Counted from the stretch's first letter, positions 2,589 to 18,365 are shown. The stretch is DNA of 64,000 nt from an uncultured Solirubrobacterales bacterium (GCA_963788975.1 CAWBIJ010000003.1:71156-135155), one strand, 5' to 3'. Made by a program: numbers and translations. The notes: generated by a model from the sequence alone, not told the origin.

Positions 2589-2720
2589 TCCGTTTCCTTT
2601 CCGATGAGAAGTGCGTGCTGCGTTCGACGGGGTTTGCTAAGACCCTTCGATACCAAAACCTATACCGGGAGGTTTCCACTCAGCCAAGACGCAACTTTTC
2701 CGTCCGATAGCTCAAGCAAA

Positions 2721-3557
2721 ATGGTCAATATGAATCGGCTCTCGACTGAGAAGCGCGCGCAGATCATCGGCGCGCTCGTAGAGGGCAACAGCATCCGCGC
2801 CACGGTGCGAATGACCGGAGCGGCCAAGAACACGATCACCAAGCTCCTAGGCGATCTCGGGGAAGCCTGCACCGTCTACCAGGACCAGACGCTGCGCGAT
2901 CTCCCCTGCAAAGTGATCGAGGCCGACGAGATCTGGGCCTACTGCTACGCGAAGAAAAAGAACGTGCCGGAGGAGTTCAAAGGGACTCCCGGCTACGGCG
3001 ATGTCTGGACCTATACGGCCCTCTGCGCCGACACCAAGCTCGTTCCTAGCTGGCTCGTCGGGGAGCAAAGCACCGACGACGCCTACGTCTTCATGTGCGA
3101 CCTGGCGAGCCGGATGGCGAATCGCATCCAGCTAACGACCGATGGGAACAGCATCTACGAACAGGCCGTGGGGCCAGCCTTCCGCCAGAAGGTCGATTGG
3201 GCGCAGATCCACAAGACCTACAGCTCGCCTGGTCCCACTGCCGAGTACAAATACAGCCCGCCGGTCTGCACTGGCGCGAAGGTCCGGGCCCTGAAGGGCG
3301 ATCCCGACCGGGACCGGATCTCGACCAGCTACGTCGAGCGGCAGAACCTCTCAATGCGAATGGGTATGCGGCGCTTCACGCGGCTGACAAACGGCTTCAG
3401 TCGCAGGGTCGAGAACTTGGCCCACGCGGTCAGCCTCCACTTCCTTCATTACAACTTCGCCCGCTCGCACCAGACGCTCCAGATGACGCCGGCGATGGCG
3501 GCCGGAGTTGCGGATCACCGCTGGAGCCTCGAAGAGATCGCGGCACTATTGGACTGA
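2721..3557 (+). CDS. IS1 family transposase (single ORF)
   Basis: Internal ATG of ORF 2436-3557. There is an N-terminal HTH (LSTEKRAQIIGALVEGNSIRATVRMTGAAKNTITKLL). DDE-type motifs are DEIWAYCYAKKKN, LTTDGNSIY and SYVERQNLSMRMGMRRFTRLTNGFSRRVENLAHAVSLHFLHYNFARSHQTL, typical of IS1-family proteins. Confidence 0.85.
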   Translation: MVNMNRLSTEKRAQIIGALVEGNSIRATVRMTGAAKNTITKLLGDLGEACTVYQDQTLRDLPCKVIEADEIWAYCYAKKKNVPEEFKGTPGYGDVWTYTALCADTKLVPSWLVGEQSTDDAYVFMCDLASRMANRIQLTTDGNSIYEQAVGPAFRQKVDWAQIHKTYSSPGPTAEYKYSPPVCTGAKVRALKGDPDRDRISTSYVERQNLSMRMGMRRFTRLTNGFSRRVENLAHAVSLHFLHYNFARSHQTLQMTPAMAAGVADHRWSLEEIAALLD

Positions 3558-3823: not shown

Positions 3824-4942
3824 TCAGCTGGAAGCGGGCTCCAGCGCCTTCGGACCCGCGTCTCGCTCGATCGGCAGCCCCTCGCTCTCCCATTCTTGGG
3901 CGGTGTGGCGAAGCTGGAGGAAGGCGACGATCCCCAGAGGGAGCGGCATCCAGAAGGCAATCAGCCGGTAGACCAGGATCGCCGGGAAGACGGTCTCCTC
4001 GGGGATGCCGAAGAGGACGAAGGCGCCGATCATCCCGGCATCCACCGCCCCGACACCCGCCGGCGCCAGCGGGAAGAGGTTGGCGACCATGCCGAGGAAG
4101 AAGCCCTGGACCACGACCGCGAGCGGGACGTGCACGCCGAAGGCCTTGAAGGAAGCCCAGAGGATGCCGATGTTGGCCGCCCAGAAGCCGGCGGCGCCGA
4201 TCACCGCCAGCCCACCCCGCGACGGGTTGGCGAAGAGCCCGGCCGTGAACCTCAGCCCCTCACCGGCGATCGCCGGCACCTTGGCGATGTTGGCGACGAT
4301 CGCTTTGCTCCGCTCACTGCGGGCGAACCCTTCGACCCGCTTTCCCAGGTCGGGCGGGATCAGAGCCACCAGCACACCGAGGATTAGCAGCAGGCCCGCG
4401 ACCCCGGCCGGAATGATCGTCAGCTCGACCGAGCTCTTGCCCGGCACGACCCCGGTTCGCAGCAGGATCCCGCAGACGATCAGCGCCAGCGGGTAGAAGA
4501 AGTACTGGAGCGCGAGGAAGGCGACCATCCGCCTCCCCACGTCGTGCCGCGGCATCCCGGCCTTGCGCAGCGCCCAGAACGTGAGGGCGATGCCGCCCGC
4601 GCCGCCGGCCGAGAAGAGCCGCGTCGCGGCAACCCCGGCCATGTTGATCTCGTAGGTCTCCTTCCAGCTGAGCGGCAGCGCGTCCCCGCCGACCACGGCC
4701 TTGAACAACGCGATGTAGGTGGCGATCGCGACGACGTTGAAGCAAACCGCGACGGCGACCCAGAGGAGGTCGGCTTCGCTCAGCTTGCCGAGCGCGTCGC
4801 CGAGGCCGACCAGGCGCGGGAAGAGGAAGTAGATCGCGACCAGGAGGATGAGGACGAGCAGGGCGGTCTGGACGACCCGCCGTCGCGTGAACAGCGGCAG
4901 TTCGACGGCGCCGTTACCGTTCGCCGAGTCCTGCGGAGACAC
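3824..4942 (-). CDS. polytopic membrane protein, lysylphosphatidylglycerol-synthase TM-region/flippase-like (UPF0104-like)
   Basis: 372-aa ORF with about 8 hydrophobic helices. The overall pattern resembles the UPF0104/MprF flippase-like domain. The family call is tentative. Confidence 0.6.
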   Translation of the reverse strand: MSPQDSANGNGAVELPLFTRRRVVQTALLVLILLVAIYFLFPRLVGLGDALGKLSEADLLWVAVAVCFNVVAIATYIALFKAVVGGDALPLSWKETYEINMAGVAATRLFSAGGAGGIALTFWALRKAGMPRHDVGRRMVAFLALQYFFYPLALIVCGILLRTGVVPGKSSVELTIIPAGVAGLLLILGVLVALIPPDLGKRVEGFARSERSKAIVANIAKVPAIAGEGLRFTAGLFANPSRGGLAVIGAAGFWAANIGILWASFKAFGVHVPLAVVVQGFFLGMVANLFPLAPAGVGAVDAGMIGAFVLFGIPEETVFPAILVYRLIAFWMPLPLGIVAFLQLRHTAQEWESEGLPIERDAGPKALEPASS

Positions 4943-4952
4943 CCCAGGGAAG

Positions 4953-5897
4953 CTACCCGCTCGCGAGGCGCTCTAGACGCCGCAACCCGCGATTCACCCT
5001 CAGCACCGCCGGTTCGGCGAGCGGCTCGCCGCGTCGCACGGCAGCGACCAGACCCGCTCCGGCGAGCAGATCGGTGACGTAGTGCTCGCCCAGGTAGACG
5101 AGCGCGAAGCCCAACGTCAGCGCGTAGCTCCAGCCAGCCGCCCCCTCGGCGCGTCCCGCTTCGGAAAGCACGATTGCCGCGATCACCGAGGTCGCGAAGT
5201 GCAGCGAGGGCATCGCCGCCCAAGGATTACCTCCGAGCGCCCCGTACATCGCCGGCCACGCCTTTCCCCATGTCGGTTCACCGACCTCGACCATGATCCG
5301 CCGCACCTCTTCCCCGGTCAGGCCCTGCTCGGATGCCCACCACGGTGGCGCCGTCGGCACGGCGAAGTAGCCGACGCAACCGAGGTCGAAGACGGCAGCG
5401 AGCTGGCGAGCCGCGCGGGGAAAGCGCTCGGGGTGGCGGAGGAGGATCCAGACGAGAGCGGCATAGGGCTCGAGGAACCAAAGCCAGTGCACCCAGGTGA
5501 GGAGGCGGTCGACGCCGTTGACCCGGCCGAGTCGGGCGAGGGCGCGCTGCAGACGGGCGTTGGGCAGCCGCCCGAGGCCGATCGCACGGTCGATTGCGAT
5601 CGGGTAGCGGCTGCGCAGGCGCCGGCGCAGGCGCTCCGGATCGTCGTAGGGAAGCTCGTGCACCATCGTGAAGGCCCACATCTGCATCGCGTAGAGGACG
5701 ACGTCGCGCTTGTGGGAGCGCGGGCGCAGAACGGCGACCGCCAACGGCCCGCTCGCGCAGGCTGCAACCGTGACCGGAGCGGGAATGCGCAGGCGACGCC
5801 TCAGCAGCGGCACGGCCACCGCGGCGACCAGCGCGCCCGCCGCCCCGGCGCGCACCACCGTGCGTAGCGCCGGAGATGGCCGGGAGCGCCTGCGCAT
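4953..5897 (-). CDS. PAP2-superfamily membrane phosphatase/phosphotransferase-like protein
   Basis: The C-terminal motifs MPSLHFATSV and YLGEHYVTDLLAG match PAP2 motifs C2/C3 (SxH ... HxxxD). I chose the start at ATG 5895-5897 because the ATG at 5996 lies inside an intergenic repeat. The start is uncertain. Confidence 0.6.
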   Translation of the reverse strand: MRRRSRPSPALRTVVRAGAAGALVAAVAVPLLRRRLRIPAPVTVAACASGPLAVAVLRPRSHKRDVVLYAMQMWAFTMVHELPYDDPERLRRRLRSRYPIAIDRAIGLGRLPNARLQRALARLGRVNGVDRLLTWVHWLWFLEPYAALVWILLRHPERFPRAARQLAAVFDLGCVGYFAVPTAPPWWASEQGLTGEEVRRIMVEVGEPTWGKAWPAMYGALGGNPWAAMPSLHFATSVIAAIVLSEAGRAEGAAGWSYALTLGFALVYLGEHYVTDLLAGAGLVAAVRRGEPLAEPAVLRVNRGLRRLERLASG

Positions 5898-5993
5898 AAG
5901 GTCGGCGAGTATAGGTCCGCGGCAGCGGGCGGGCGGGAGCGGGGCGCCGCCCCTCCTGATTAGAATGGCCGCGCTTTGGAGCCGAGGACTCAT

Positions 5994-6139
5994 CACGAAA
6001 TCCCCGCGTGTGCGGCTGGCGAGCGCCGGACCAAGCGGGGCAAGGACGCAGGGAGGCCCAATAGCAGCGCTATTTGGCCGACCGAGGACGCCGCACCGCG
6101 CCGGTCCGCCGCCGCCAGACGTGCGCGAGGGGTTTCGTG
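5994..6139. repeat. palindromic intergenic repeat, long form (copy A)
   Basis: The termini CACGAAATCCCC...GGGGTTTCGTG are inverted. About 95 nt of core (GGCTGGCGAGCGCCGGACCAAGCGGGGCAAGGACGCAGGGAGGCC.AATAGCA.CGCTATTTGGCCGACCGAGGACGCCGCACCGCGC) are near-identical to 47956-48052. Confidence 0.8.
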
Positions 6140-6844
6140 ATGAGTCCCAGCTCCCCTGGCACCGACCAGATCCAGACCCTGTTCGGCATCGGCTTCGTCG
6201 CTTTTGCGATCGTCGCCGTCGTCGTCAATGGCGCGCTGATCTACGCGCTGCGTCGCCGCCGCGCCGGTCGCGGCGCCCAGGCCGCCGATCCCGAGCCCCG
6301 ATCGGGGCGTCACCCCCAGCTCCGTGTCGGCGCTGCGCTCGGTGTCTTCGCGACGGCGATCCTCGTGCTCAGCCTGGTCTTCACCGAGAAGGCGCGCGAG
6401 GCTCCCGCGACCGGACCCGCCGGTCTCCAGGCCAAAGGTTCGGAGCCGCTGAGGATCACGGCGACCGGTCAGCAGTGGCTGTGGCGCTACGAGTACCCCA
6501 ACGGAGCCTTCTCCTATTACAAGCTGGTGGTGCCGGTCGACACCGCGATCAAGCTCGAGCTCGGCTCCACCGACGTGATCCACACCTGGAACGTGCCCAG
6601 CCTTGCCGGCAAGCGTGACGCCGTGCCGGGCAGGGTCCACGAGGTCTCCTTCCTAGCCGACGAGGAGGGCAGCTACACGGGCCGGGCCGCGACCCTCTCC
6701 GGCGCCGCCTTTGCGGCGATGGGCACCGAAGTCGAGGCCGTCTCTCCCGAGGAGTACGAGAGCTACGTGAAACAGCTCGACGCCGACATCCAGGCCGCCC
6801 AGGACGAGGTCGTCAGCCAAATCGAAAGCGGGGAGACGCCATGA
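6140..6844 (+). CDS. cytochrome oxidase subunit II-like protein lacking the CuA ligands
   Basis: Internal ATG of ORF 6074-6844. It has two N-terminal TM helices and a cupredoxin domain (QQWLWRYEYP, DVIHTWNVPSLAGKRDAVPG). The CuA loop reads GRAATLSGAAFAAM instead of CxExCGxxHxxM. Confidence 0.75.
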   Translation: MSPSSPGTDQIQTLFGIGFVAFAIVAVVVNGALIYALRRRRAGRGAQAADPEPRSGRHPQLRVGAALGVFATAILVLSLVFTEKAREAPATGPAGLQAKGSEPLRITATGQQWLWRYEYPNGAFSYYKLVVPVDTAIKLELGSTDVIHTWNVPSLAGKRDAVPGRVHEVSFLADEEGSYTGRAATLSGAAFAAMGTEVEAVSPEEYESYVKQLDADIQAAQDEVVSQIESGETP

Positions 6845-8529
6845 GCGCGAGCGCAAAGCGCCCGGAGATCATCGTCGACGGATTCCCGCGCAGCCGCTCG
6901 CGCTGGGCTGAGCTGGCGACCAGTGGTGATCACAAGGACATCGGCCGGATCCTGATCGGCGGCGCGCTCGGGTTCCTCTTCATCGCCCTGATCGAGCTGC
7001 TGCTGATGCGGCTGCAGCTGGCGATTCCGGGGAACACATTCCTCTCTCCGGAGACCTTCAACCGGATGCTCTCGCTCTACGGCACGACCGCGATCTTCCT
7101 CTTCGCGCTCCCGCTCGTCTTCGGCCTCTTCTACTACCTGGCGCCGCTGCAGATTGGCGCCCGCGGGACCGCCCTCCCCCGCCTCGGTCAGCTCGGCCTC
7201 TGGCTCTGGGTCGCCGGAGCCACCGTCCTCTACGCGGGCTTCCTCTTCACCCCCTCCGAGGCGGGCATCAACCCCCTGGCGCCGCTCTCCGAGCTGGCCT
7301 TCCTCTCCAACAACGGGGTCGACGCGTGGGCGGCCGCCACCGGCCTGGCGACGCTCGGCTTCGTCCTGCTGGCGATCGACCTGACCACGACGCTGCGCAG
7401 GATGCGGGCGCCGGGCATGGCCTGGAGGCGACTGCCGGTCTTCGCCTGGGCCACGGCGATCGGCTCCTGGCTGATGCTCGTGATCGGCCCGGTGCTGCTG
7501 GCTGCGATCACGATGCTGCTGATCGATCGCAACTTCGACGGAATCTTCTTCGCCGACGGCTCCGGAGGGGCGCCACTGCTCTGGCAGCACCTGAGCTGGA
7601 TCTTCTTCACCGGCACCTACATGCTGGTCATGATCGCCGCCTTCGGCGCGATCTGCGAGATCGTCCCGTCGCTCGTCGGCCGGCCGCTCGAGGGCCGCTC
7701 CACGGTGATCGGCTCGCTCGTCACGATCGCCGTGATCGGCACTCTGGCCTGGATCCAGAACATGTTCACGGCGCCGATCGGGATCGCCTGGATGTACTTC
7801 GCGATGACGATGGCCCTGGCCCTGATCGTCCCCTTCGGGCTGATCGTCTACAACCTGATCGCGACGATCGCTGGCGGCACCGTTCGCATGCGAGCGCCGC
7901 TGCTCTTCGCTGCCGGCGCGGTCTCGGCGATCTCGGTCGGCCTCGCGGCGGAGATCTCACACTCAATGGTCGGCCTCGCCTGGAAACTGAAGAACACGAC
8001 CGATGCCACCGGGGCGACGCATTTCGCCCTGATCGGCGGCGCCGTCTTCGGCGGTTTCGCCGCCCTCCACTACTGGTTCCCGAAGATGACCGGCCGCACG
8101 ATGGGCGAGAGCCTGGCGCGGATCTCCTTCTGGACGATGATCCTCGGTGCCATCCTCGCCTTCGTCCCACTCCTCTTCTCCGGTACCTACGAGGGGCAGG
8201 TGATCGACGCCTACAAGTTCTTCGGCGACGAAAGCATCAGCGGCTACAACCTGGTCGCCTCGATCGGCGCCCTCATGCTCGCCGCCGGCATCGTGATGAC
8301 GCTCGTCAACGCGATCCTCAGCCGTGAGGGCGGGCCCGAGGCCGGGCACGACCCCTGGGGCGGAGACTCGCTCGAGTGGTTTGCGCTCTCGCCCCCTGAG
8401 CCCCACAATTTCGACGTGCTTCCCGACGTGCGCAGCGAGCACCCGATGCGGGACATCCGCACGGCGATCGCCCACCGCACCGCGCGCAAGCCCGAGCGGC
8501 CAGCGCCCGAGTCACAGCCGGTAGCCTGA
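6841..8529 (+). CDS. heme-copper oxidase subunit I-like protein lacking heme a and CuB histidines
   Basis: GDHKDIG start motif and 12-TM pattern. It is colinear with the canonical CtaD in this window, but the ligand positions read SLYGTTAIF, FFTGTYMLV, AWIQNMF and THFALIGG. An ATGA overlap links it to the upstream subunit II-like ORF. Confidence 0.8.
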   Translation: MSASAKRPEIIVDGFPRSRSRWAELATSGDHKDIGRILIGGALGFLFIALIELLLMRLQLAIPGNTFLSPETFNRMLSLYGTTAIFLFALPLVFGLFYYLAPLQIGARGTALPRLGQLGLWLWVAGATVLYAGFLFTPSEAGINPLAPLSELAFLSNNGVDAWAAATGLATLGFVLLAIDLTTTLRRMRAPGMAWRRLPVFAWATAIGSWLMLVIGPVLLAAITMLLIDRNFDGIFFADGSGGAPLLWQHLSWIFFTGTYMLVMIAAFGAICEIVPSLVGRPLEGRSTVIGSLVTIAVIGTLAWIQNMFTAPIGIAWMYFAMTMALALIVPFGLIVYNLIATIAGGTVRMRAPLLFAAGAVSAISVGLAAEISHSMVGLAWKLKNTTDATGATHFALIGGAVFGGFAALHYWFPKMTGRTMGESLARISFWTMILGAILAFVPLLFSGTYEGQVIDAYKFFGDESISGYNLVASIGALMLAAGIVMTLVNAILSREGGPEAGHDPWGGDSLEWFALSPPEPHNFDVLPDVRSEHPMRDIRTAIAHRTARKPERPAPESQPVA

Positions 8530-8535
8530 TCTCTG

Positions 8536-9435
8536 ATGAGCGGCGCCGAGACCGTCGTAGTCGCCGCGCAGCGACCAGCAGCACTGACCGTCCTGCGGGA
8601 CTACGTCACGCTGACCAAGCCGAAGGTGCAGTCGCTACTGCTGCTGACCACGATCACGACGATGTACGTGGCCGGCGATCCCTCGCTCGGCCTCGTCCTC
8701 CTCACCTGCCTCGGCGGCGCCCTCTCAGCGGGCGGCGCCGGTGCGATCAACCACGCGGTCGACCGTGACATCGACCGCACGATGGCGCGCACGGCAGATC
8801 GGCCGGTAGCCAGCGGCCGAGTCTCGCCGGGAGCGGCGATCGCCTTCGGCGCTGCGCTCGGCTTGGCGTCGTTCACGCTGCTCTCGCTGACCGTCAACCC
8901 CCTCGCCGCATCGCTCTCGCTGTCCGGGCTGTTCGGCTACGTCTTCGTCTACACGCTGTGGCTGAAGCGCCGCACTCCGCAGAACATCGTGATCGGCGGC
9001 GCCGCCGGCGCGGTGCCTCCGCTGGTCGCCTGGGCAGCGGTGACCGGAGGGCTCAGCGGCACCGCCTTCTACCTCTTCGCGATCGTCTTCTTCTGGACGC
9101 CGCCCCACTTCTGGGCGCTCTCACTGCTGATGAAGGACGAGTACGCGAAGGCCGGCGTGCCGATGCTGCCAGTCGTCCGCGGCGAGGACGAGACGCGCCG
9201 CCAGATCCTCCTCTACACCGTGCTGCTCTACGCGGTGACCCAGCTGCCCTTCTGCGCCGGCGCCTTCGGGGTCGAGTACCTGGTCGCCTCGATGAGCCTC
9301 GGGGCCGCCTTCATCTACTTTGCGGTGCGGCTGCTGCGCAGCGGCGAGCGGAGCTGGGCCCTGCGCACCTACCTCTTCTCGCTCGCCTACCTGGCGCTGC
9401 TCTTCCTGGCGATGCCGCTCGACCGGGTGCTCTAG
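8536..9435 (+). CDS. ctaB: protoheme IX farnesyltransferase (heme O synthase)
   Basis: UbiA-family motifs NHAVDRDIDRTMARTADRPVASGRV and FFWTPPHFWALSLLMKDEYAKAGVPMLPVV. Confidence 0.9.
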   Translation: MSGAETVVVAAQRPAALTVLRDYVTLTKPKVQSLLLLTTITTMYVAGDPSLGLVLLTCLGGALSAGGAGAINHAVDRDIDRTMARTADRPVASGRVSPGAAIAFGAALGLASFTLLSLTVNPLAASLSLSGLFGYVFVYTLWLKRRTPQNIVIGGAAGAVPPLVAWAAVTGGLSGTAFYLFAIVFFWTPPHFWALSLLMKDEYAKAGVPMLPVVRGEDETRRQILLYTVLLYAVTQLPFCAGAFGVEYLVASMSLGAAFIYFAVRLLRSGERSWALRTYLFSLAYLALLFLAMPLDRVL

Positions 9436-9448
9436 TAGAAATCCGGCC

Positions 9449-9562
9449 ATGGATCGCCAGACGGCAAAAAAGAACATGACCTCGGCCCTGGTCGCCGGGG
9501 GCATCGCCGCCGCGATCTTCGCCCTCTGCTTCGTGGCCGCGACCCTCTACATCGCCTCATGA
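9449..9562 (+). CDS. possible 37-aa single-TM peptide
   Basis: Internal ATG of ORF 9320-9562, giving MDRQTAKKNMTSALVAGGIAAAIFALCFVAATLYIAS. Its stop overlaps the next ORF's start (ATGA). It has no recognisable family. Confidence 0.3.
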   Translation: MDRQTAKKNMTSALVAGGIAAAIFALCFVAATLYIAS

Positions 9563-9849
9563 GCGCAGAGCGGAGCGTTCCCGAGCCCGGCGAGCTGGTC
9601 TACCGGCCGCAGTCCTCCTGGCTGCCGGCCATCCTCGCCTTCGCCCTGGCGCTTGCCGTCTGCGGGATCTTCGCCCCGTTCATGGTGCCTGGGTGGATCT
9701 ACTCGGCGATCGGCATCGTGACCGCCCTGGTGGTCCTCCGCAGGATGACTCGCGGCGCAATCCGCGAGTACTTCCGCCTCCCCCGCAATCAGCGCGTGCG
9801 CGGCGCAGTGCTGCCAGTCGAAACGATCTCCCCGCCACATAAGGGCTGA
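9559..9849 (+). CDS. small two-TM membrane protein, unknown function
   Basis: 96-aa ORF with two hydrophobic helices (WLPAILAFALALAVCGIFAPF, WIYSAIGIVTALVVL), in the respiratory cluster. Confidence 0.5.
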   Translation: MSAERSVPEPGELVYRPQSSWLPAILAFALALAVCGIFAPFMVPGWIYSAIGIVTALVVLRRMTRGAIREYFRLPRNQRVRGAVLPVETISPPHKG

Positions 9850-9865
9850 GGCCAGCCTCAGCCCT

Positions 9866-10267
9866 CTATTCCGGCGTCATCCCGGATGTCGCGCCCTCAG
9901 ATGTCCAGACTTTGACGATGTCGCGCATCGAGAGCACGCCGACCAGCTCTGCGTCGTCGTAGACGACGAGGTGGCGGATGCCGCGGCGCGCCATCTCGGC
10001 CGCGGCGCGCTCCAGGCTCCAGTCGGGCGAGGCCGCGATCACGCTGTCGCTCATGTGGTCGGCGACCCGCTCGGCGTCGGGGTCATCACCGGCGCCGACC
10101 GAGAGCAGGATGTCGCGCTCGGTGACGATGCAGGGCACCGGTGTCTCGTCGTCGCTGACCAGCGCCGCGCCGATCCCTTTGTCCGCCATCATCGCCGCCG
10201 CCTCTCGCAGCGTGTGCGAAGGGCCGACGGTGAGCACCACCTCTGACATCCCGTCCCGTACCCGCAT
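9866..10267 (-). CDS. CBS domain pair protein
   Basis: Two CBS repeats are present (VLTVGPSHTLREAAAMMADKGIGAALV...IVTERDILL; VIAASPDWSLERAAAEMARRGIRHLVV...VLSMRDIVKV). Confidence 0.85.
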   Translation of the reverse strand: MRVRDGMSEVVLTVGPSHTLREAAAMMADKGIGAALVSDDETPVPCIVTERDILLSVGAGDDPDAERVADHMSDSVIAASPDWSLERAAAEMARRGIRHLVVYDDAELVGVLSMRDIVKVWTSEGATSGMTPE

Positions 10268-10396
10268 CTGCGCTCCTTCCCCGCGTCACCGCGAGATCGT
10301 GTGAATCGCCTCAAGCCTACCCATCCATCCCAGTCCTCGCCAGGCATCTTTTCGCGAGTCCTGGGCATATAGACTCCGGCGCGCCCAGCGCCGTGT

Positions 10397-11089
10397 ATGC
10401 CTAACTCAATTCGCCCAACCCGCCTGCTGCTCGCCCTCGCCGTCGTGGTCGCCGTCGCGCTGACCGCCTCCGGCTGCGGCACGAGCAGCGCGGACGAGGA
10501 GCGCGGCCGAGTGCTCTTCAAACAGAAATGCGGCACCTGCCACATCATGGCCCAGGCGGGCACGAGCGGCACGATCGGGCCCGACCTCGACGACGCCTTC
10601 GGCCCAGCGCGCGCCGCCGGCGAGACAGGCAGCACGATCGAAGGCGTGGTCAAGGCCCAGGTCGAGAACCCGCGGCCCATAACCGACAACCCGGCGGTCT
10701 CGATGCCGGCCGACATCGTCGAGGGACAGGATCTCGAAGACGTCGCCGCCTACATCGGCGAGTACGCGGGCGTGCCCGGCGCGGCGCCCCCGACCGTACC
10801 CGGCGGCCCCGGCGCCCAAGTCTTCGCAAACAACGGCTGCGGTGGCTGCCACACGCTCGCCGCGGCCAAATCGGGTGGCGTAACCGGCCCCAACCTCGAC
10901 GATGTCCTACCCGGACAGAGCGCCGCGATGATCCACAAATCGATCGTCGACCCAAACTCGGTCCTCGCCAAAGGCTATCCGGCAAACGTGATGCCGCCGA
11001 CCTACGAAACCGCGCTCAGCCCGAAAGAACTGGAAGACCTCGTCGCCTACCTGGTCAAATCGACCAGCGGCAAATCCAAAGCCGGCTGA
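10397..11089 (+). CDS. dihaem class I c-type cytochrome, lipoprotein
   Basis: Lipobox LTASGC. Two CxxCH motifs (CGTCH, CGGCH), each followed by GPDLDD/GPNLDD, with distal Met regions. Confidence 0.85.
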   Translation: MPNSIRPTRLLLALAVVVAVALTASGCGTSSADEERGRVLFKQKCGTCHIMAQAGTSGTIGPDLDDAFGPARAAGETGSTIEGVVKAQVENPRPITDNPAVSMPADIVEGQDLEDVAAYIGEYAGVPGAAPPTVPGGPGAQVFANNGCGGCHTLAAAKSGGVTGPNLDDVLPGQSAAMIHKSIVDPNSVLAKGYPANVMPPTYETALSPKELEDLVAYLVKSTSGKSKAG

Positions 11090-11141
11090 GCCCGCCCGCG
11101 GCGGCGACCCGACTGTCGCTGGCATCATCCGTCGACTACCG

Positions 11142-12113
11142 ATGCGTGAGCGCCTAGAGATCACGCCGCAGCTCTACGCCAAGGTGACGATCGTCGCCTT
11201 GGCAGCCCTCTCTCTGATCGTGCTTACCGGCGCTGGGGTGCGGCTGACCGGCTCCGGCCTTGGCTGCCCCGACTGGCCGAAGTGCTACGGGAAAACAGTG
11301 CCACCGCTCGACACCCACGCAGTGATCGAGTACGGCAATCGCCTCCTCACCGGCTTCGTCGGCCTCGCCGTGATCGCCGCCAGCGCCCTCGCCTGGCTGC
11401 GGCGGCCGTTCCGCTGGCACCTCGCCTTCTTCGGCGCGCTGCTGCCCATGGGGGTGATCGGACAGGCTGTCCTTGGGGCCCTGGTCGTCAAGCACCACCT
11501 CGCCCCGGAGCTGGTGATGTGCCACTTCCTGCTCTCGATGCTGCTGCTCGACGCCGCTTTCGCGCTTGCCTGGTGCGCCCGCTACGAGTTCTGGGAGCGA
11601 CGACGCTCCTCGGACCGGCTCGGCGTCTGGGCAGTCCGCGCCCTGGTCCCGCTCGGGCAACTGACGATCCTCGCCGGGACGGTCGCGACCGCCTCGGGCC
11701 CTCACGCCGGCGACCACGAAGGTGAGCTGGTCAGGCGGTTCGACTTCGAGGGCGCCGGCACCTTGGAGTGGGTGGTGCAGCGCCATAGCGCGATCGCCAC
11801 GGTCTTCGGCTTCGCGGCGATCGGGGTCTGGCTCCTGCTGAGGCGGCAGGGAGGCGACAGGCGCGCCGTCAGACCCCTCACCGTCGTGATCTGCCTGCTC
11901 GGGGTCCAGGGAGCCGTAGGGGGCCTCCAGTGGGCCCTGGAGCTGCCGGCGGAACTGGTCTGGCTGCACATCGTCCTCGCCACGACCACCTGGCTGGCGA
12001 TGCTGTGGACGGTTGCCACTGCCGGCCGGCTGGAGCCACGAGGGGCCGTCGTGGCTCCCAGCGCTGAGACCATGCCGGAGCCGGCCCTGAGCGCCCCCGG
12101 CAGGGCCCCCTAG
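11142..12113 (+). CDS. ctaA: heme A synthase (COX15/CtaA)
   Basis: GSGLGCPDWPKCYG, IEYGNRLLTG, a multi-TM pattern and conserved His residues in the helices. Confidence 0.85.
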   Translation: MRERLEITPQLYAKVTIVALAALSLIVLTGAGVRLTGSGLGCPDWPKCYGKTVPPLDTHAVIEYGNRLLTGFVGLAVIAASALAWLRRPFRWHLAFFGALLPMGVIGQAVLGALVVKHHLAPELVMCHFLLSMLLLDAAFALAWCARYEFWERRRSSDRLGVWAVRALVPLGQLTILAGTVATASGPHAGDHEGELVRRFDFEGAGTLEWVVQRHSAIATVFGFAAIGVWLLLRRQGGDRRAVRPLTVVICLLGVQGAVGGLQWALELPAELVWLHIVLATTTWLAMLWTVATAGRLEPRGAVVAPSAETMPEPALSAPGRAP

Positions 12114-12128
12114 ACGCGCCCCACGCTG

Positions 12129-12932: not shown

Positions 12933-13143
12933 TCAGCCCGACGAAGGCGGCGAACGCCACCGCGAACAGCTGAATCATGGTCCGTTGCATCAGCTCAAAG
13001 CGAGCATCGACTCGGGCTTCAAACGCGTCGAAGCGGGATTCCAGCGATCCGAAGCGAGCATCCACGCGACGCCCCTGCTCGACGACCTGTTCCTTCAGGT
13101 CGTCCATCCGCTCGTCGGTCCAGCTCTCTCGCACAGCCTCCAT
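12895..13143 (-). CDS. small coiled-coil, C-terminally membrane-anchored protein
   Basis: 82-aa ORF with repeated heptad-like RVDARF/SRFDAF segments, then a hydrophobic tail IQLFAVAFAAFVGLISAQTALLLALL. Confidence 0.5.
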   Translation of the reverse strand: MEAVRESWTDERMDDLKEQVVEQGRRVDARFGSLESRFDAFEARVDARFELMQRTMIQLFAVAFAAFVGLISAQTALLLALL

Positions 13144-13210
13144 ATTGGCAGACTAGAAGACAGAAAGTTACGTGTGGGCACCTCGATGTGACGATTTCGC
13201 AACGACTACA

Positions 13211-13974: not shown

Positions 13975-14598
13975 TCAGAGGATGTAAACCGAGACGTAGA
14001 CGATGATCCACATCACGTCGACGAAGTGCCAGTAGATGCCTGGCACCTCAACTCCGAGGTGATCCTCCGCGGCAGGCCCGAAATGACCACGGAAAGCGCG
14101 GATCGTGGCGAAACTGAGGAGGGCGAGGCCGACGAAGACGTGGGCGCCATGCAGGCCGGTGAGGCCGTAGAAGATCGAGCCGAAGGCGAGATCGCGGGCG
14201 GCGAAGCCGATGTGCGCGTACTCGTTGATCTGAATAAAGAGGAAGGTGGCGCCGAGAAGAAGGGTGAGAACCAGGCCCAGCTTCAGCCCAGTGCGGTTCC
14301 CCTTGCGCACCGACTCAAGCGCGTAGTGGATGGTGAAGCTCGAAGAGACGAGGATCGCGGTGTTGATTCCAGCCACTGCGACCGGTAGCTCGTAAGGCTC
14401 GGGCGGCCAGCTCGGCGGGTCGACAACCACGCGGAGGAAGAAGTAGGCGGCGAAGAAGGCGCCGAACAGCATCACCTCGGAGACGATGAAGAGCAGGATC
14501 CCCAGGGTCTGGCGATCGATCCGCGAGCTCTGGTGGGCCTCGGGCGGGCCGTGGTGCTCGTCGTGGGAGTGGCCCAGGGCGACGGTGGCGCTCTCCAT
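13975..14598 (-). CDS. ctaE: cytochrome c oxidase subunit III
   Basis: Internal ATG (14596-14598) of ORF 13975-14715. MESATVALGHSHDEHHGPPE...LGILLFIVSEVMLFGAFFAAYFF...GLHGAHVFVG...YWHFVDVMWIIVY are typical COX3 motifs. Confidence 0.85.
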   Translation of the reverse strand: MESATVALGHSHDEHHGPPEAHQSSRIDRQTLGILLFIVSEVMLFGAFFAAYFFLRVVVDPPSWPPEPYELPVAVAGINTAILVSSSFTIHYALESVRKGNRTGLKLGLVLTLLLGATFLFIQINEYAHIGFAARDLAFGSIFYGLTGLHGAHVFVGLALLSFATIRAFRGHFGPAAEDHLGVEVPGIYWHFVDVMWIIVYVSVYIL

Positions 14599-14758
14599 CA
14601 GTGCCGCCTCCCGTGGGTACGGCCCGGCTCTGACGAGTGGCTGGGCGTGACTGGCAAGTCCGGTGAACGAAGGCGATGCAGCGCATCGACGAGTTCGCTG
14701 GACGCCGCCAGGCACGTCCAGATGCCGTCAGAACGGGGTGTACTCGCGTGAGTCGGCA

Positions 14759-15637
14759 CTAAGCCGTCTCCTCTCCCTCGGCAACGGCGGCGGCCACAGC
14801 GGCCGCCGGCCTGCCGACCTCGAGGTGCTCGACGGTCTTGTCGGTGATCTCGCGAACCCGGCCGATCAGGTCCTCCTCGAGCCAGCGCGAGGTCTCGCCG
14901 GCAAATGTCGAGATCAGCACCTCGTCAATTCGGTAGTGCTCGATCGCGTTTCTCACAGCATGGAAGGGATCGGGGCTCATCGGTTGCCCGGTGGCGTCGA
15001 TGTCGGCGCGGTAGAGCTCGGCAAGGGTCGAGGCGAGGTCGCGCACCACCTCCGACTCCGAGACGTCGTCGGAGCGGGGGCAGATGACCGTGAAGCGGTG
15101 CGGATGGCCCGCGGCTCGTTCCTTCAGCCGGGTGACCAGGTCCGGGGCCGCAACCGTCTGGGTGGCGACGACCAAAGTGTGGTTGACCTCCCAGCTGACC
15201 GCGTCGTCTTCGATCCGCACCGGGATGTGGGTGACGGCGATGTCCGGCTCGAAGCGAGCCCGCGCCCACTCCACCAGGTCCTTGCGAGTCAGCCCGAAAC
15301 GAGTCTCGGAGAGGCAGGAGAGCAGCACCTCGCCGGGGTCATGGGCGCGCACGGCGTCATCCAGGGCGAGCGCTGGATCGGGATCCATCACCTCACCGAT
15401 CGAGTCGATTCCGTACTCGGAGAGGACCGACATCGTCACCTCGACCCGCGCCCGCGCAGCGTCGCGCAGTTCACCGGGCTCGACGACCTGACCGACGGCC
15501 GGCTGGTTCTGCGGTGCCGCGACGGCGACGAAGGGAACCTGCTCGGCCCGCTCCTGAACCGCCTGCAGCAACTTGCGGCCGCCCGCGACCTCGTTGAGGA
15601 AGACGAGCAGGGGTCGGGCGTCGGACGTGGGGCTCAT
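14759..15637 (-). CDS. tandem Rossmann-like (USP/HUP-type) domain protein
   Basis: The ATG at 15635-15637 overlaps the ctaD stop (ATGA). MSPTSDARPLLVFLNEVAGGRKLL... and HTLVVATQTVAAPDLVTRL...IDEVLISTFAGETSRWLEEDLI are two copies of the domain in 13211-13861. The listed 711-aa ORF 14759-16894 is this gene extended through an off-frame reading of ctaD. Confidence 0.75.
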   Translation of the reverse strand: MSPTSDARPLLVFLNEVAGGRKLLQAVQERAEQVPFVAVAAPQNQPAVGQVVEPGELRDAARARVEVTMSVLSEYGIDSIGEVMDPDPALALDDAVRAHDPGEVLLSCLSETRFGLTRKDLVEWARARFEPDIAVTHIPVRIEDDAVSWEVNHTLVVATQTVAAPDLVTRLKERAAGHPHRFTVICPRSDDVSESEVVRDLASTLAELYRADIDATGQPMSPDPFHAVRNAIEHYRIDEVLISTFAGETSRWLEEDLIGRVREITDKTVEHLEVGRPAAAVAAAVAEGEETA

Positions 15638-17541
15638 GTCGAGGTACCCACCGTGGTCGGCTCCGGTTTGGCGACCTCTGCGCCTTCGCCGCCCATGATC
15701 GCGTGGCGGGCGCCGGGCACGCCGAACTCGTAGGGACCGCCAACCACGCGCGGGATCTCGTCGAAGTTGAAGATCGGCGGCGGCGAGGAGACCTGCCACT
15801 CGATCGTCTTCGCGCGCCAGGGGTTGGCCTCGGCCCGCGGGCCGTACTTCCAGCTGACGATCATGTTGTAGAGGAAGACGAGCTGCACGGCACCGAGCAG
15901 GAAGGCGCCGCAGCTGATCAGCAAGTTCCACTCGCCGAACTGCGTGGCGTAGTCGGCGACGCGTCGCGGCATCCCGTCCATGCCTACCCAGTGCATCGGG
16001 ATGAAGGTGAGCCAGGTGCCGATGACGGTGCCCCAGAAGTGGACTCGGCCGAGCCGCTCGTCGTACATCCGCCCGGTCATCTTCGGGAACCAGTGGTAGA
16101 CGCCCGCGAAGATCGTGAAGACCGAGCCGCCGAAGAGCACGAAGTGGATGTGAGCGACGATGAAGTAGGTGTCCGAGACGTGAATGTCGATCGGCACCAT
16201 GCCCAGCATCACGCCGCTGATCCCGCCGATCGTGAAGGTGACGATGAAGGCGAGCGCGAACAGCATCGCGGTCGAGTACGTATGGATCTTTCCGAAGTAG
16301 AGCGTGCCCAGCCAGGAGAAGATCTTGATCCCGGTCGGCACCGCGATCAGCAGCGTGGTGATCATCATCGGCACCCGCAGCCAGCTGAACATGCCGGCGA
16401 CGAACATGTGGTGCGCCCAGACCGAGTAGCTGAGGACGACGATCCCGATCAGCGCCAGAGCCATCAACCGGTAGCCGAAGATCGGCTTGCGGGCGTGGGT
16501 CGAGATGACCTCGCTGATGATCCCGAAGCCGGGCAGCATCATGATGTAGACGGCTGGGTGCGAGTAGAACCAGAAGATGTGCTGGTAGCTGACCACGTCG
16601 CCCCCGGCCGCAAACTCGAAGAAGTTGGTGTGAAGGACCCGATCGAAGAGCACCATGAACTGGGCGCCGGCGATGAACGGGGTTGCGGCGACGACCAGCA
16701 GCGAGGTCGAGAGATTGGCCCAAACCAGCAGCGGCATGCGCCAGAAGGTCATTCCGGGCGCACGCATGGTGATGATCGTGACCAAGAAGTTGAGCGCGGT
16801 CGCGATCGAGGAGGCGCCGGCGAACTGCACTCCTATGTTGAAGAACGATTGGCCGAGCGGTGCCCCCGTGGAGAGCGGCGCGTAGCCGGTCCAACCGGTG
16901 TCGAAAGCGCCCCCCGGAGCGAGGTAGCTACCGATGAAGAGCAGGCCGGCCAGCGGCAGCATCCAGAAGCTGAGCGCGTTGAGCCGCGGGAAGGCCATGT
17001 CCGGCGCGCCGATCATCAGCGGCAGGACGTAGTTGGCGAGCCCGGCGAAGACTGGGATCACGAAGACGAAGATCATCAGCACCGCGTGGGTTGAGAAGAG
17101 GCCGTTGTAGGTGCTCGGATCGACGATCTGCGAGCCCGGCTGGGCCAGCTCGGCGCGGATCAGCATCGCCAGCAGCCCACCGATAAAGAAGAAGAAAAAG
17201 GTGGTGACGACGTACTGGATGCCGATCACCTTGTGATCGGTGTTGAAGCGGAAGTAGTCGCGCCAGCTGGTCGCCCCGTGCTGAGAGTGGTCCTCGGGAG
17301 CGGTCGGCATCCCCGCCGCCCAGCGCAGCCAGTAGTCAAAGCAGCCGAAGCCGAGCAGGAAACCGAGCGGGCCAGTGACCAGCGGCACGACTACATGCGG
17401 GTAGCCCGTCTGCTCGGTCTGGAAGACGTCGAGCCCGGAGACCGCCCGCAGCATTACGACCAGGCCGAAGCCGAACGCGGCGCCCAGCACCATGCCGAGC
17501 GCGCCCCGAATCCACCCTGGCTGCTTGATCGCGGTCACCAT
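15634..17541 (-). CDS. ctaD: cytochrome c oxidase subunit I (canonical)
   Basis: All ligand motifs are present: STHAVLMIF, WFYSHPAVYIMMLPGFG, WAHHMFVAG, VAHIHFVLFGG. Confidence 0.95.
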   Translation of the reverse strand: MVTAIKQPGWIRGALGMVLGAAFGFGLVVMLRAVSGLDVFQTEQTGYPHVVVPLVTGPLGFLLGFGCFDYWLRWAAGMPTAPEDHSQHGATSWRDYFRFNTDHKVIGIQYVVTTFFFFFIGGLLAMLIRAELAQPGSQIVDPSTYNGLFSTHAVLMIFVFVIPVFAGLANYVLPLMIGAPDMAFPRLNALSFWMLPLAGLLFIGSYLAPGGAFDTGWTGYAPLSTGAPLGQSFFNIGVQFAGASSIATALNFLVTIITMRAPGMTFWRMPLLVWANLSTSLLVVAATPFIAGAQFMVLFDRVLHTNFFEFAAGGDVVSYQHIFWFYSHPAVYIMMLPGFGIISEVISTHARKPIFGYRLMALALIGIVVLSYSVWAHHMFVAGMFSWLRVPMMITTLLIAVPTGIKIFSWLGTLYFGKIHTYSTAMLFALAFIVTFTIGGISGVMLGMVPIDIHVSDTYFIVAHIHFVLFGGSVFTIFAGVYHWFPKMTGRMYDERLGRVHFWGTVIGTWLTFIPMHWVGMDGMPRRVADYATQFGEWNLLISCGAFLLGAVQLVFLYNMIVSWKYGPRAEANPWRAKTIEWQVSSPPPIFNFDEIPRVVGGPYEFGVPGARHAIMGGEGAEVAKPEPTTVGTST

Positions 17542-17573
17542 CTAGTCGGTCTCCTCATTATGCCCAGGCGGCA

Positions 17574-18365
17574 CTACGCTCCTCCGGCTCCGACGGGGAC
17601 GGGGTCGGCCTCGGTGTCCTGGACGACCGACTCTTTGAACGGAGCCGGCACTTTCTGGTCCAGTTCGCCGACCCATTTGCGGAACTCGGCCGCCGGCTCG
17701 GCCACCACGGTGGCGCGCATCGTGGTGTGGCCGAAGCCGCAGAGCTCGGTACAGATCAACTGATAGGTCCCCGGCTCGTCGGGCGTGACGATCGCCGTCG
17801 TCGTGATCCCAGGGACGGCGTCCTTCTTGATCCGCCACTCCTGCACCCAAAAGGAGTGGATCACGTCCTGGGCGTGCAGCTTGAACTGGACCTGGCGGTC
17901 GAGCGGCACGTGCAGCTCGCCCTCCGACCAGACTTCGTCCTTTCCTGGATAGCCGAAGCTCCAGGCGAACTGCTGCGCGAAGACCTGGACCGTGAGCGGG
18001 TTCTCGGCCGGCTCCTCGATGTCGTCCAGCACCGCCCAGCTGTAAGCGGCGCCGAAGAGGACGATGATCGTCGGGATCACGGTCCAGGCGATCTCAAGCC
18101 GCGTGTTGCCGTGGATCGGCTCGCCGTCGGACTCGTCGCCCGGCTTGGCTTTGAACTTCCACAGCGCGTAGAAGAGCATCACCATCACCAACGCGAAGAC
18201 GAAGGCCGAGAGGACGATCATCACGTCGAGCAGCGTGTCGATCTTCGGCGCGGCAGTGGAGGCGCCCTGGCCGTTCCAGTTGATCGGCAGCATCACTGCC
18301 GAGATCACCACGGTCAGCGCAATCGTGGCAGCGAGCATCTTCGCTATCGGGAGGCGTCCGATCAT
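17574..18365 (-). CDS. ctaC: cytochrome c oxidase subunit II (canonical, CuA)
   Basis: Two TM helices plus a cupredoxin domain with DVIHSFWV and the CuA loop CTELCGFGHTTM. Confidence 0.9.
   Translation of the reverse strand: MIGRLPIAKMLAATIALTVVISAVMLPINWNGQGASTAAPKIDTLLDVMIVLSAFVFALVMVMLFYALWKFKAKPGDESDGEPIHGNTRLEIAWTVIPTIIVLFGAAYSWAVLDDIEEPAENPLTVQVFAQQFAWSFGYPGKDEVWSEGELHVPLDRQVQFKLHAQDVIHSFWVQEWRIKKDAVPGITTTAIVTPDEPGTYQLICTELCGFGHTTMRATVVAEPAAEFRKWVGELDQKVPAPFKESVVQDTEADPVPVGAGGA

Follow-up and report, generated by a model that had tools for sequence, protein, structure and literature searches.

The stretch of DNA analysed here, a window of 64,000 nucleotides from an uncultured Solirubrobacterales bacterium (GCA_963788975.1, CAWBIJ010000003.1:71156-135155; positions are counted from its first letter), is made up largely of ordinary chromosomal housekeeping genes, and carries among them two overlapping open reading frames (ORFs) that encode degenerate relatives of subunits II and I of the haem-copper oxidases, here called dCOX2 and dCOX1. 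Both have lost almost every residue that binds a redox metal in their working relatives. Very probably, to judge by comparison with their homologues, they represent a derivative of an A1-type oxidase that is maintained by selection and would hold no cofactor.

The features of the locus are collected in Table 1. A GGGGAG motif resembling a Shine-Dalgarno sequence lies upstream of the dCOX1 start, and the dCOX1 stop codon (8527-8529) is separated by only 6 bp from the ATG of ctaB at 8536, which places ctaB in the same operon as dCOX1. The GC content at third codon positions (GC3) of the degenerate pair is 0.86 and 0.92, like that of the neighbouring genes. The divergent MprF-like and PAP2 genes upstream served as anchors by which this site was recognised in every Thermoleophilia genome compared, and the intact A2-type operon downstream presumably encodes the organism's working oxidase. 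A scan of positions 5800-13200 found no sigma-70-like promoter, and terminator-like sites were no commoner there than expected by chance.

Table 1. Features of the degenerate oxidase locus and its surroundings, in order of position in the window.
Feature	Position	Strand	Evidence or remark
373-aa ORF	2436-3557	+	PF03400 (IS1 transposase), sub-threshold, E 0.0013
MprF-like flippase-domain gene, divergent	3824..4942	-	Pfam; upstream synteny anchor
PAP2-family gene, divergent	4953..5996	-	Pfam; upstream synteny anchor
dCOX2, degenerate oxidase subunit II, 234 aa	6140..6844	+	ATG start; Pfam COX2 76 bits
ATGA overlap of dCOX2 stop and dCOX1 start (translational coupling)	6841..6844	+	Sequence read directly
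dCOX1, degenerate oxidase subunit I, 562 aa	6841..8529	+	Pfam COX1 283 bits, E 4e-84
ctaB, haem O synthase, UbiA family	8536..9435	+	NF003349 360 bits vs cut-off 246
orf96, conserved 96-aa membrane ORF following ctaB	9559..9849	+	Syntenic in surveyed loci L001-L034
CBS-domain protein, conserved neighbour	9866..10267	-	Pfam CBS 85 bits; synteny
Dihaem c-type cytochrome	10397..11089	+	Pfam Cytochrom_C, two stretches; synteny
COX15/CtaA-like haem A synthase	11142..12113	+	PF02628 100 bits; synteny
Conserved ORF, 267 aa, downstream of ctaA	12129..12932	+	Syntenic in close subfamily
216-aa ORF, just downstream of COX3	13211-13861	-	Homologous to the ~290-aa ORF
Intact A2-type cytochrome c oxidase operon	13975..18365	-	ctaC, ctaD, ~290-aa ORF, COX3
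COX3 of A2 operon	13975-14715	-	
Soluble acidic ORF, ~290 aa, between A2 ctaD and COX3	14759-15630	-	Without Pfam family
A2 ctaD	15634-17541	-	All six His, YSHPAVY motif, both channels, Arg pair
A2 ctaC	17574-18365	-	Full CuA site

The match of dCOX1 to the Pfam subunit I profile (PF00115) spans positions 2-436 of 436, and its ligand columns were read from three alignments that agree with one another, made with phmmer (to the Mycobacterium tuberculosis CtaD 8hcr_F, E 1.9e-83), BLASTP (to the CtaD encoded in the window itself, 32% identity, E 7e-74) and MAFFT. The haem a histidine of transmembrane helix 2 (TM2) is replaced by Y80, the CuB histidine of TM6 by T257, the CuB His-His of TM7 by Q306 and N307, and the haem a3 histidine of TM10 by A392; five of the six canonical histidines are therefore missing, and the second haem a histidine of TM10, H394, is the sole survivor. 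The stretch that corresponds to HPEVY reads T257-G258-T259-Y260-M261, so that T259 occupies the Glu286 column and M261 that of the cross-linked tyrosine; Y260 adjoins the latter column but, with T257 in place of the histidine, has no partner to link to. Beyond the metal sites, the D-channel Asn/Asp/Asn have become Y98, G109 and G116, the K-channel Thr/Lys F332 and I335, the pair of arginines at the haem propionates I455 and D456, and the Mg-site Asp N385. Retained, on the other hand, is R57, the arginine that contacts the formyl group of haem a. The two canonical oxidase types of these genomes share 161 invariant columns; the degenerate proteins depart from them at 72 and keep 62 strictly. By fold and sequence homology dCOX1 belongs to the subunit I superfamily of the haem-copper oxidoreductases (HCOs), though it lacks the six histidines by which members are recognised; the tyrosine cross-linked to a CuB histidine, which marks the oxygen-reducing A, B and C types, is absent, and so are the D and K channels of the A1 type from which it descends. 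Its score against the equivalog model TIGR02891 (CtaD_CoxA) is 378 with a cut-off of 671. Judged by these residues, dCOX1/dCOX2 cannot be an oxidase.

A corresponding loss is found in dCOX2, which keeps the layout of an oxidase subunit II (a cupredoxin domain with two TM helices before it, and a helix at the C-terminus) but not the CuA motif H...CxExCxxxHxxM. In an alignment to Paracoccus denitrificans 1ar1_B the two CuA cysteines are A183 and S187, the second histidine is F191 and the glutamate of the loop is T185, whereas H148 and M194 remain, and the score against TIGR02866 (CoxB), 135.7, falls under the cut-off of 147.7. Homologues of dCOX2 form at least 120 clusters with lengths of 230-234 aa, bar four outliers of 219-254 aa, and the consensus of the former CuA loop across them is [AS]ATLSG[AQ][AS][YF]AAM.

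Structure prediction indicates that the folds outlasted the cofactor sites. The AlphaFold2 (AF2) model of dCOX1, built from a 45-sequence alignment, has 12 TM helices, a predicted template-modelling score of 0.77 and a mean predicted local distance difference test (pLDDT) of 67, with confident helices and poor loops, and its top Foldseek matches are mycobacterial CtaD proteins with template-modelling scores of 0.79-0.80 (0.79 for 8hcr_F). The model of dCOX2 (mean pLDDT likewise 67) combines a beta-sandwich with two TM helices and a C-terminal helix predicted with confidence; its periplasmic domain superimposes on Bradyrhizobium CoxB (4w9z) with a template-modelling score of 0.72, normalised to target length, and a root-mean-square deviation of 2.6 angstroms.

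Much of this had been noticed in an earlier, sequence-only reading of the window. It described both ORFs as uninterrupted, GC3-rich, joined by ATGA and followed 6 bp later by ctaB, as translation of the ORFs and reading of the sequence bear out. It also listed a dihaem cytochrome c and ctaA after ctaB; profile matches confirm these genes, with orf96 and the CBS-domain gene, which it had left out, lying in between. Its assignments of Y80, of Q306 and N307 and of H394 as the last histidine are reproduced by all three alignments, and matching to PF00115 and PF00116 restored no histidine at any ligand column. The loss of the TM6 CuB histidine to threonine was likewise right, with the position corrected from Thr258 to T257, and the loss turned out even wider than it had said, extending to both channels, the propionate Arg pair and the Asp of the Mg site. 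That dCOX2 retains two TM helices and a cupredoxin domain without the CuA cysteines is evident from PF00116, the 1ar1_B alignment and the AF2 model, and the structure prediction that it called for returned the folds of subunits I and II.

The same replacements recur throughout a sizeable family. At least 120 clusters (at 90% identity) share 77-100% identity with dCOX1, the named ones being Solirubrobacterales metagenome-assembled genomes (MAGs), and seven columns read Tyr / Thr or Ser / Met / Gln / Asn / Ala / His in 120 of these 120 close clusters; substitutions fixed so uniformly are not due to chance. A second subfamily, seeded from a Conexibacter-labelled MAG and about 47-55% identical to dCOX1, comprises another 119 clusters. 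Here the first CuB His column holds Ala, Thr or Ser, the second Gln (101/119) and the third Asn (84/119), the haem a columns vary (Tyr or Phe at one; His, Phe or Tyr at the other), and 52 of the 119 clusters have no histidine at any of the six ligand columns. One substitution is shared by all: the propionate arginine (the Arg482 column) is Asp in 119/119 clusters of this subfamily, in 120/120 close homologues and in the locus-encoded proteins wherever the column could be aligned. When clusters and surveyed loci of the second subfamily are counted, the former haem a pair reads Y-H in 66 clusters and 1 locus, F-F in 30 clusters and 4 loci, Y-Y in 9 clusters and 1 locus and, in loci but in no cluster, A-L (3), A-I (1) and G-G (1). 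No named isolate occurs among the 240 homologous clusters found or the 80 loci described below, all matches being MAGs. One member of the second subfamily (P0311) is an 875-aa protein with both PF00116 and PF00115, which is either a fusion of subunits II and I or a gene call that reads through the overlapping stop and start.

The genomic setting reveals where the pair came from. We surveyed one genome per GTDB species and, in the best 80 of 568 confirmed loci, searched the ORFs with the window proteins and read the ligand columns. A degenerate subunit I is found in the same gene order as in the window in 33 loci; the degenerate loci (L001-L034 except L019, plus L058) belong to Solirubrobacterales or Conexibacter-like genomes. 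They run from the MprF-like and PAP2 genes on the minus strand through subunits II and I, in some a ctaA-like gene, then ctaB, orf96, the CBS-domain gene (minus strand) and the dihaem cytochrome c to, further on, the A2 operon. About 23 loci hold a fully canonical A1-type oxidase at this very site (PAP2, then II, I, in some ctaA, and ctaB; residue string NDNHWHEYHHTKHHRR). These canonical loci (L035-L054, L061 and L079) come from Thermoleophilaceae, Solirubrobacteraceae and Paraconexibacter, and many of them also have a separate A2 operon within the stretch compared. Subunit II lacks CuA in every degenerate locus with a readable, intact subunit II ORF (it is fragmented in L020 and L021), and reads HWCECHM, or Gln or Asn at the Glu column, wherever it stands beside a canonical subunit I; the columns of both proteins thus change together locus by locus, and the two subunits have degenerated together.

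In degenerate and in most canonical A1 loci ctaB adjoins subunit I, with a gap of 1-50 bp in loci other than the window and with a CtaA-like ORF in between in some. This interposed ORF is divergent, scoring only 36-66 bits against the window's CtaA, and occurs in the degenerate loci L022-L027, L029, L030 and L032 and in the canonical loci L035-L038; in the window's own subfamily the position is empty and a CtaA-like gene follows the dihaem cytochrome c instead, which suggests that the haem A synthase gene has been relocated or replaced among these loci. Another oddity of the survey is L040 (CAMCVN010000003.1), which has the gene order of Thermoleophilia in a record titled "MAG: Bifidobacterium breve" and looks mislabelled or contaminated.

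In a neighbour-joining tree of 97 sequences (536 columns, 100 bootstraps), the degenerate clade is monophyletic in 100/100 replicates and nested within the A1-type oxidases in 100/100, with its grouping with the syntenic Thermoleophilia A1 enzymes recovered in only 56/100. Its stem measures 0.44 substitutions per site; measured from the shared ancestor, degenerate proteins lie at 0.91-0.94 and canonical orthologues at 0.28. Together, the site shared with canonical A1 oxidases and the nesting in the tree identify the pair as the orthologue of an A1 aa3 oxidase whose function was lost once. A recent duplication of the window's ctaDC, which the word paralogues in the sequence-only reading might suggest, is ruled out: identities are only 32% and 28%, the phylogeny points to A1 and not A2, and at this position sister lineages still carry a separate, intact A1-type oxidase to which the pair is orthologous.

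The pair bears a clear mark of purifying selection, the pattern of which is informative in itself. We applied the Nei-Gojobori method to codon alignments of the window and 20 loci, and the resulting ratios of nonsynonymous to synonymous divergence (dN/dS) are reliable for comparison with one another. Median values are 0.426 for dCOX2 and 0.385 for dCOX1, followed by the dihaem cytochrome c (0.37), the MprF-like gene (0.31), PAP2 (0.27), CtaB (0.25), CtaA (0.24), COX3 (0.185) and the working CtaD (0.16). Compared with the closest genome (L001), dCOX1 has a dN of 0.029, a dS of 0.178 and a dN/dS (omega) of 0.163 (Fisher p 2e-19), and dCOX2 an omega of 0.256 (p 3e-6); the closest pairs of the second subfamily give dN/dS of 0.19-0.20. 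Relative to the window protein, the 20 closest genomes differ by just 0-4 gap codons, and indels are nearly nil up to 30% amino-acid divergence, with only small ones at 50%. Furthermore, several of the carrier chromosomes are closed and measure only 2.5-2.8 Mb, a size at which one would not expect 2.4 kb of useless DNA to survive.

When dN/dS is partitioned by the helices of the AF2 model, with the same five genomes for both proteins, the working CtaD is constrained evenly (TM helices 0.124, loops 0.123, C-terminal tail 0.131), whereas in dCOX1 the values are 0.362, 0.256 and 0.132. Relaxation is therefore about 3-fold in the membrane core, about 2-fold in the loops and nil in the cytoplasmic C-terminal segment (residues 498-545). 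Similarly, the cupredoxin domain is the most constrained part of dCOX2 (0.34, against 0.43-0.66 for its TM helices). Constraint that is concentrated outside the membrane is the signature of a protein that folds and presents surfaces, and not of a frame that is merely kept open. The ORFs are split by frameshifts in MAG loci of the MFD series (L019, L020, L021, L066 and L073), which we considered as a sign of decay and dropped, since the flanking PAP2, MprF-like, CtaA, COX3 and CtaD genes are fragmented there too; indel errors of assembly in these long-read MAGs are the most likely cause. With ORFs otherwise intact, save in some of these Nanopore-derived MAGs, dN/dS of 0.16-0.43 and constant length, a decaying pseudogene is excluded as far as sequence can tell, as the earlier reading had supposed on less; the syntenic orthologues it had wanted to see exist in 33 degenerate loci. 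Its broader view of a maintained, non-redox derivative of an A-type oxidase accords with conservation, selection, length, fold and the linkage of I to II alike. Of the marks of a pseudo-enzyme, the loss of catalytic residues and purifying selection are observed here; the non-catalytic role that would complete the definition is one that we infer.

What became of the emptied cofactor sites can be approached through side-chain volume. Summed over 348 columns, the TM side chains of degenerate proteins occupy 47,060-47,510 cubic angstroms, against about 49,550 (standard deviation 200-300) in all canonical groups, a reduction of about 2,000-2,500 cubic angstroms accompanied by a loss of about 17 aromatic residues. 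We had expected changes from Gly to bulky residues to increase this volume; as it has fallen instead, a refilling of the pockets by side chains is rejected as an argument from sequence. Composition has shifted in parallel, with Ala at 13.3% versus 9.1%, Leu at 13.3% versus 9.3% and fewer aromatic residues. The drop may reflect a GC-driven drift towards Ala, Gly and Leu under relaxed constraint, and it may leave room for a hydrophobic ligand that is not ligated.

The explanation that we favour is as follows. In its well-supported part, an A1 aa3 oxidase, encoded, as it still is in sister lineages, in a ctaC-ctaD-(ctaA)-ctaB operon beside a second operon for an A2-type oxidase, lost its catalytic apparatus once in a sublineage of the Solirubrobacterales: the ligands of haems a and a3, CuB, the cross-linked tyrosine, the D and K channels, the propionate arginines, the Mg site and CuA. 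A burst of change was followed by a slower regime of purifying selection, under which the pair has been kept intact and co-translated, presumably as a heterodimer. The resulting pseudo-enzyme would still fold as a complex of subunits I and II and act through its surfaces and not through redox chemistry, with the parts outside the membrane as the probable site of a structural or scaffolding action on partners. Because the last histidine is dispensable in the wider family, the propionate arginine has turned into an invariant aspartate and the haem a columns co-vary, the pair is almost certainly free of cofactors, so that neither haem nor copper would be bound. The likeliest clients would belong to the machinery that is expressed together with the pair and that it formerly relied on, either for the synthesis and delivery of haem O and haem A (CtaB, CtaA) or for the assembly of the A2 oxidase or a respiratory supercomplex. 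Taken as a whole, this account of an A1-derived, cofactor-free pseudo-enzyme kept as a structural or scaffolding complex has in our view a slightly better than even chance of being correct; that the scaffolding serves oxidase or haem biogenesis in particular is a tentative suggestion, and one we would sooner expect to fail than to hold.

Several observations weigh against this account, in whole or in part. The AF2 models, with their mean pLDDT of 67, are only moderately confident. At a GC3 of about 0.9, dS as estimated by the Nei-Gojobori method is probably too low, which inflates absolute dN/dS. The co-variation of the haem a columns, in which polar-polar or apolar-apolar pairs dominate and mixed ones are few, speaks for the account, being what one would expect if TM2 and TM10 now touch without a haem between them, but its Fisher p of 5e-20 comes from a test that ignores phylogeny. 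In a mirror-tree comparison of dCOX1, dCOX2, CtaB, CtaA and neighbours, the partial correlation between dCOX1 and dCOX2 is about 0, albeit in 8 complete genomes only. The haem cavities are not visibly filled by bulkier residues, which leaves room for a bound ligand. The linkage to ctaB is ancestral, being present in canonical A1 loci too, and so provides no specific argument for a new role in haem handling. Finally, no stable complex of CtaA and subunit I was detected in Paracoccus (PMC5249081), which makes for a weak precedent of a scaffold between subunit I and haem synthases, although yeast Cox15 does associate with Cox1 intermediates according to work cited in the same paper.

The most sceptical alternative holds that the pair is a functionless relic, its ORFs kept open by polarity on the coupled and still essential ctaB and by the toxicity of a misfolded membrane protein. 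The short and ancestral spacing to ctaB (6 bp here, 1-50 bp elsewhere) would allow for this, and dN/dS values 2-3 times that of the working CtaD, along with the drift to amino acids of GC-rich codons (Ala and Leu up, aromatics down), are what relaxed constraint would produce. Yet a regime that only required the protein to stay compatible with the membrane should preserve the helices, and the opposite is seen, with loops, C-terminal tail and soluble cupredoxin domain the most constrained. Nor would it account for the virtual lack of indels up to 30% amino-acid divergence, for the absence of any shortened version in 33 genomes (an in-frame deletion would keep the coupling), for the invariance of family-specific polar residues (Q306, N307 and D456) or for survival in genomes of 2.5-2.8 Mb throughout a clade whose members diverge to 47% identity; moreover, the upstream subunit II is conserved as well, when coupling needs only the last ORF to be translated. 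We regard a relic as unlikely. Of the same standing is a more specific version of haem handling, which builds on the emptied and not refilled haem pockets (TM volume lower by about 2,000 cubic angstroms): the apo pair would receive farnesylated haem O or A from CtaB and CtaA, hold it without axial ligation and pass it to nascent A2 oxidase. Improbable as it is, were it true we would be looking at a haem a chaperone or buffer derived from an oxidase, in the role that Surf1 plays elsewhere, at the first pseudo-enzyme of the haem-copper superfamily and at a new answer to how haem a enters subunit I.

A different possibility, raised by the sequence-only reading as an unconventionally liganded oxidase core, is that His394 and Tyr80 form a low-spin pocket for haem B, O or A, and that the protein serves as haem carrier, buffer, chaperone or low-potential cytochrome. 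Ligation by His and Tyr is established in haemophores and haem-transfer proteins (HasA, the Isd proteins); Y80 and H394 are invariant in 120/120 close homologues, the formyl-contacting R57 is retained, the TM volume has gone down with pockets not obviously filled, and the gene is co-transcribed with ctaB. What tells against it is the sister subfamily, in which the two columns of the same locus read F-F, A-L, A-I, G-G or Y-Y and 52/119 clusters have no histidine, so that haem ligation cannot be the conserved function of the family. Additionally, both propionate arginines are gone and the aspartate that invariably replaces one of them would repel the propionates, the polar/apolar co-variation suggests direct contact between the two columns, and the loss of CuA removes the canonical entry of electrons. 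Ligation of this kind is thus very unlikely for the family, and a haem protein with His/Tyr ligands might exist in the close subfamily only. The pair could also have become a membrane protein unrelated to oxidase biogenesis, reusing the 12-TM scaffold and the cavities inside it, for instance, as a transporter, channel or sensor or to bind lipids. Polar residues that are invariant in the family where the active site and the propionates once lay (Q306, N307, D456, Q104 and R108), a long stem branch consistent with adaptive remodelling, cavities not filled by bulkier side chains and the lipid-related upstream neighbours (PAP2 and the MprF-like flippase domain, though divergently transcribed) lend this some appeal. 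On the other hand, every known proton-path residue is now Gly, Tyr, Phe or Ile, which disfavours the ion channel that the earlier reading had entertained; no new conserved ladder of acidic or basic residues was seen through the membrane; the TM core is the least constrained part, where a transporter should conserve its pore; and the PAP2 and MprF-like genes also flank the canonical A1 oxidase and hence say nothing of a new function. A role of this sort is rather unlikely in our estimation.

Some features of the surrounding genes deserve mention in their own right. The small protein encoded by orf96 appears to have two TM helices and may be what is left of a small subunit of the dead oxidase. 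We considered it as subunit IV (CtaF) and dropped the idea, as the only Pfam match was a faint, sub-threshold one (PF12270, actinobacterial oxidase subunit IV, E 0.014) and no relative was found in the PDB. The 267-aa ORF downstream of ctaA has no Pfam or NCBIfam match. In the A2 operon, CtaD is a protein of 635 aa whose Pfam COX1 match starts only at residue 106; the N-terminal extension of about 100 residues contains hydrophobic stretches and looks like added TM helices before the canonical core. The ~290-aa ORF between ctaD and COX3 and its 216-aa homologue just beyond COX3 are both conserved in position across Thermoleophilia loci (phmmer). On the far side, the 373-aa ORF lies where GC content is 0.60-0.62, against 0.65-0.72 in nearby stretches, and may be the remnant of a mobile element at the edge of the conserved locus.

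Ligand loss in this protein family may extend beyond the Solirubrobacterales. Among the 107 full-length representatives at 50% identity that lie nearest dCOX1 (P0127-P0270), a set skewed by its degenerate query and with counts taken from a bulk alignment, 37 lack at least one canonical histidine and 24 lack three or more, which hints at other HCO-like lineages with incomplete ligand sets. One type that recurs beyond the Solirubrobacterales family retains both histidines of the low-spin haem and has lost those of a3 and CuB (P0160, P0174, P0180, P0206, P0209, P0239, P0253, P0261 and P0270); where named, its members are Acidimicrobiales or Actinomycetota MAGs.

In a practical sense, automated pipelines overcall the respiratory capacity of these MAGs, for public annotation includes the names "cytochrome c oxidase subunit I/II" and "cbb3-type cytochrome c oxidase subunit I" for members of the family; others are entered as "hypothetical protein". 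More broadly, a complete I/II pair can shed its cofactor sites and proton pathways and yet stay under selection in an order-level clade of actinobacteria that abound in soil, and the retention of such a pair, cofactor-less as predicted, implies that the oxidase scaffold has a role outside redox chemistry. Two comparisons come ready-made, namely the canonical orthologue that occupies this site in sister lineages and the working A2 oxidase encoded close by. They could be used to separate the parts of subunit I that serve folding, assembly or partner binding from those that serve catalysis, to order the steps by which a respiratory enzyme dies, and to test whether oxidase subunits take part in the delivery of haem O and haem A. 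In line with the sequence-only reading, a full-text literature search returned no description of a ligand-less HCO subunit I. Sousa et al. 2011 (PMC3084760) took six invariant histidines as an inclusion criterion, of which the low-spin haem has two, the high-spin haem one and CuB/FeB three; this reference classifier for HCOs discarded sequences without them, so that ligand-less members were invisible by construction.

Among known systems, the closest relatives are the CtaD and CtaC of the actinobacterial A1 aa3 oxidase, part of the bcc-aa3 supercomplex of M. tuberculosis and Mycobacterium smegmatis (PDB 8hcr, 8ovc), which give the best sequence match (E 2e-83, 34% identity) and, for dCOX1, the best structural match (template-modelling score 0.79). 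Shared with them are a 12-TM subunit I, a two-TM cupredoxin subunit II, the gene order II-I and the conserved C-terminal segment DPW...LEW...PP.HNF...R. Unlike them, the dCOX pair has no trace of five of the six histidines, the His-Tyr cross-link, Glu286, the D channel, the K-channel Lys, the Arg pair, the Mg-site Asp or the Cys-Cys-His of CuA. The quinol oxidases (bo3 CyoA/CyoB and aa3-600 QoxA/QoxB) likewise belong to the A family and have a CuA-less cupredoxin subunit II, but their subunit I retains the six histidines, the tyrosine and the proton channels that dCOX1 does not, and the scores against NCBIfam quinol oxidase models are far below threshold (64 versus cut-offs of about 241-266 for dCOX2; 305-323 versus about 1,015-1,020 for dCOX1).

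Variation of the CuB/Tyr site on the HCO fold is also familiar from the nitric oxide reductases (NORs), where the available text of Murali et al. 2024 (PMC11214002) describes the cNOR/qNOR, eNOR, bNOR, sNOR, gNOR and nNOR families, with a CuA-less cupredoxin subunit in gNOR. As described there, eNOR, bNOR, sNOR, gNOR and nNOR have no active-site tyrosine, in some a ligand of the metal site is replaced, and they are modelled as NO reductases; presumably they keep both haems. Such variants derive from the B/C side of the tree, whereas the dCOX family comes from A1 and keeps no metal site. A functional analogy may be drawn to the companions of haem O and haem A synthases and of subunit I hemylation, that is Surf1/Shy1 and the intermediates of Cox10/Cox15 with Cox1. 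Surf1 has no homology to the dCOX pair and binds haem a through a conserved histidine, whereas the dCOX family has no conserved ligand. Cofactor-less relatives of redox or catalytic membrane proteins exist elsewhere, in the rogue and super-rogue D1 proteins of photosystem II (including ChlF) and in the membrane pseudo-enzymes iRhoms and Derlins, which are conserved despite the loss of metal or catalytic ligands and for which structural or regulatory roles, or new reactions, are supported by experiment. Their folds are unrelated to that of the dCOX pair, and the likeness is one of analogy only. Overall, the fold and the ancestry of the dCOX pair are familiar, and what is new is an oxidase core that has been retained by selection after, as its residues indicate, all of its cofactors were given up.

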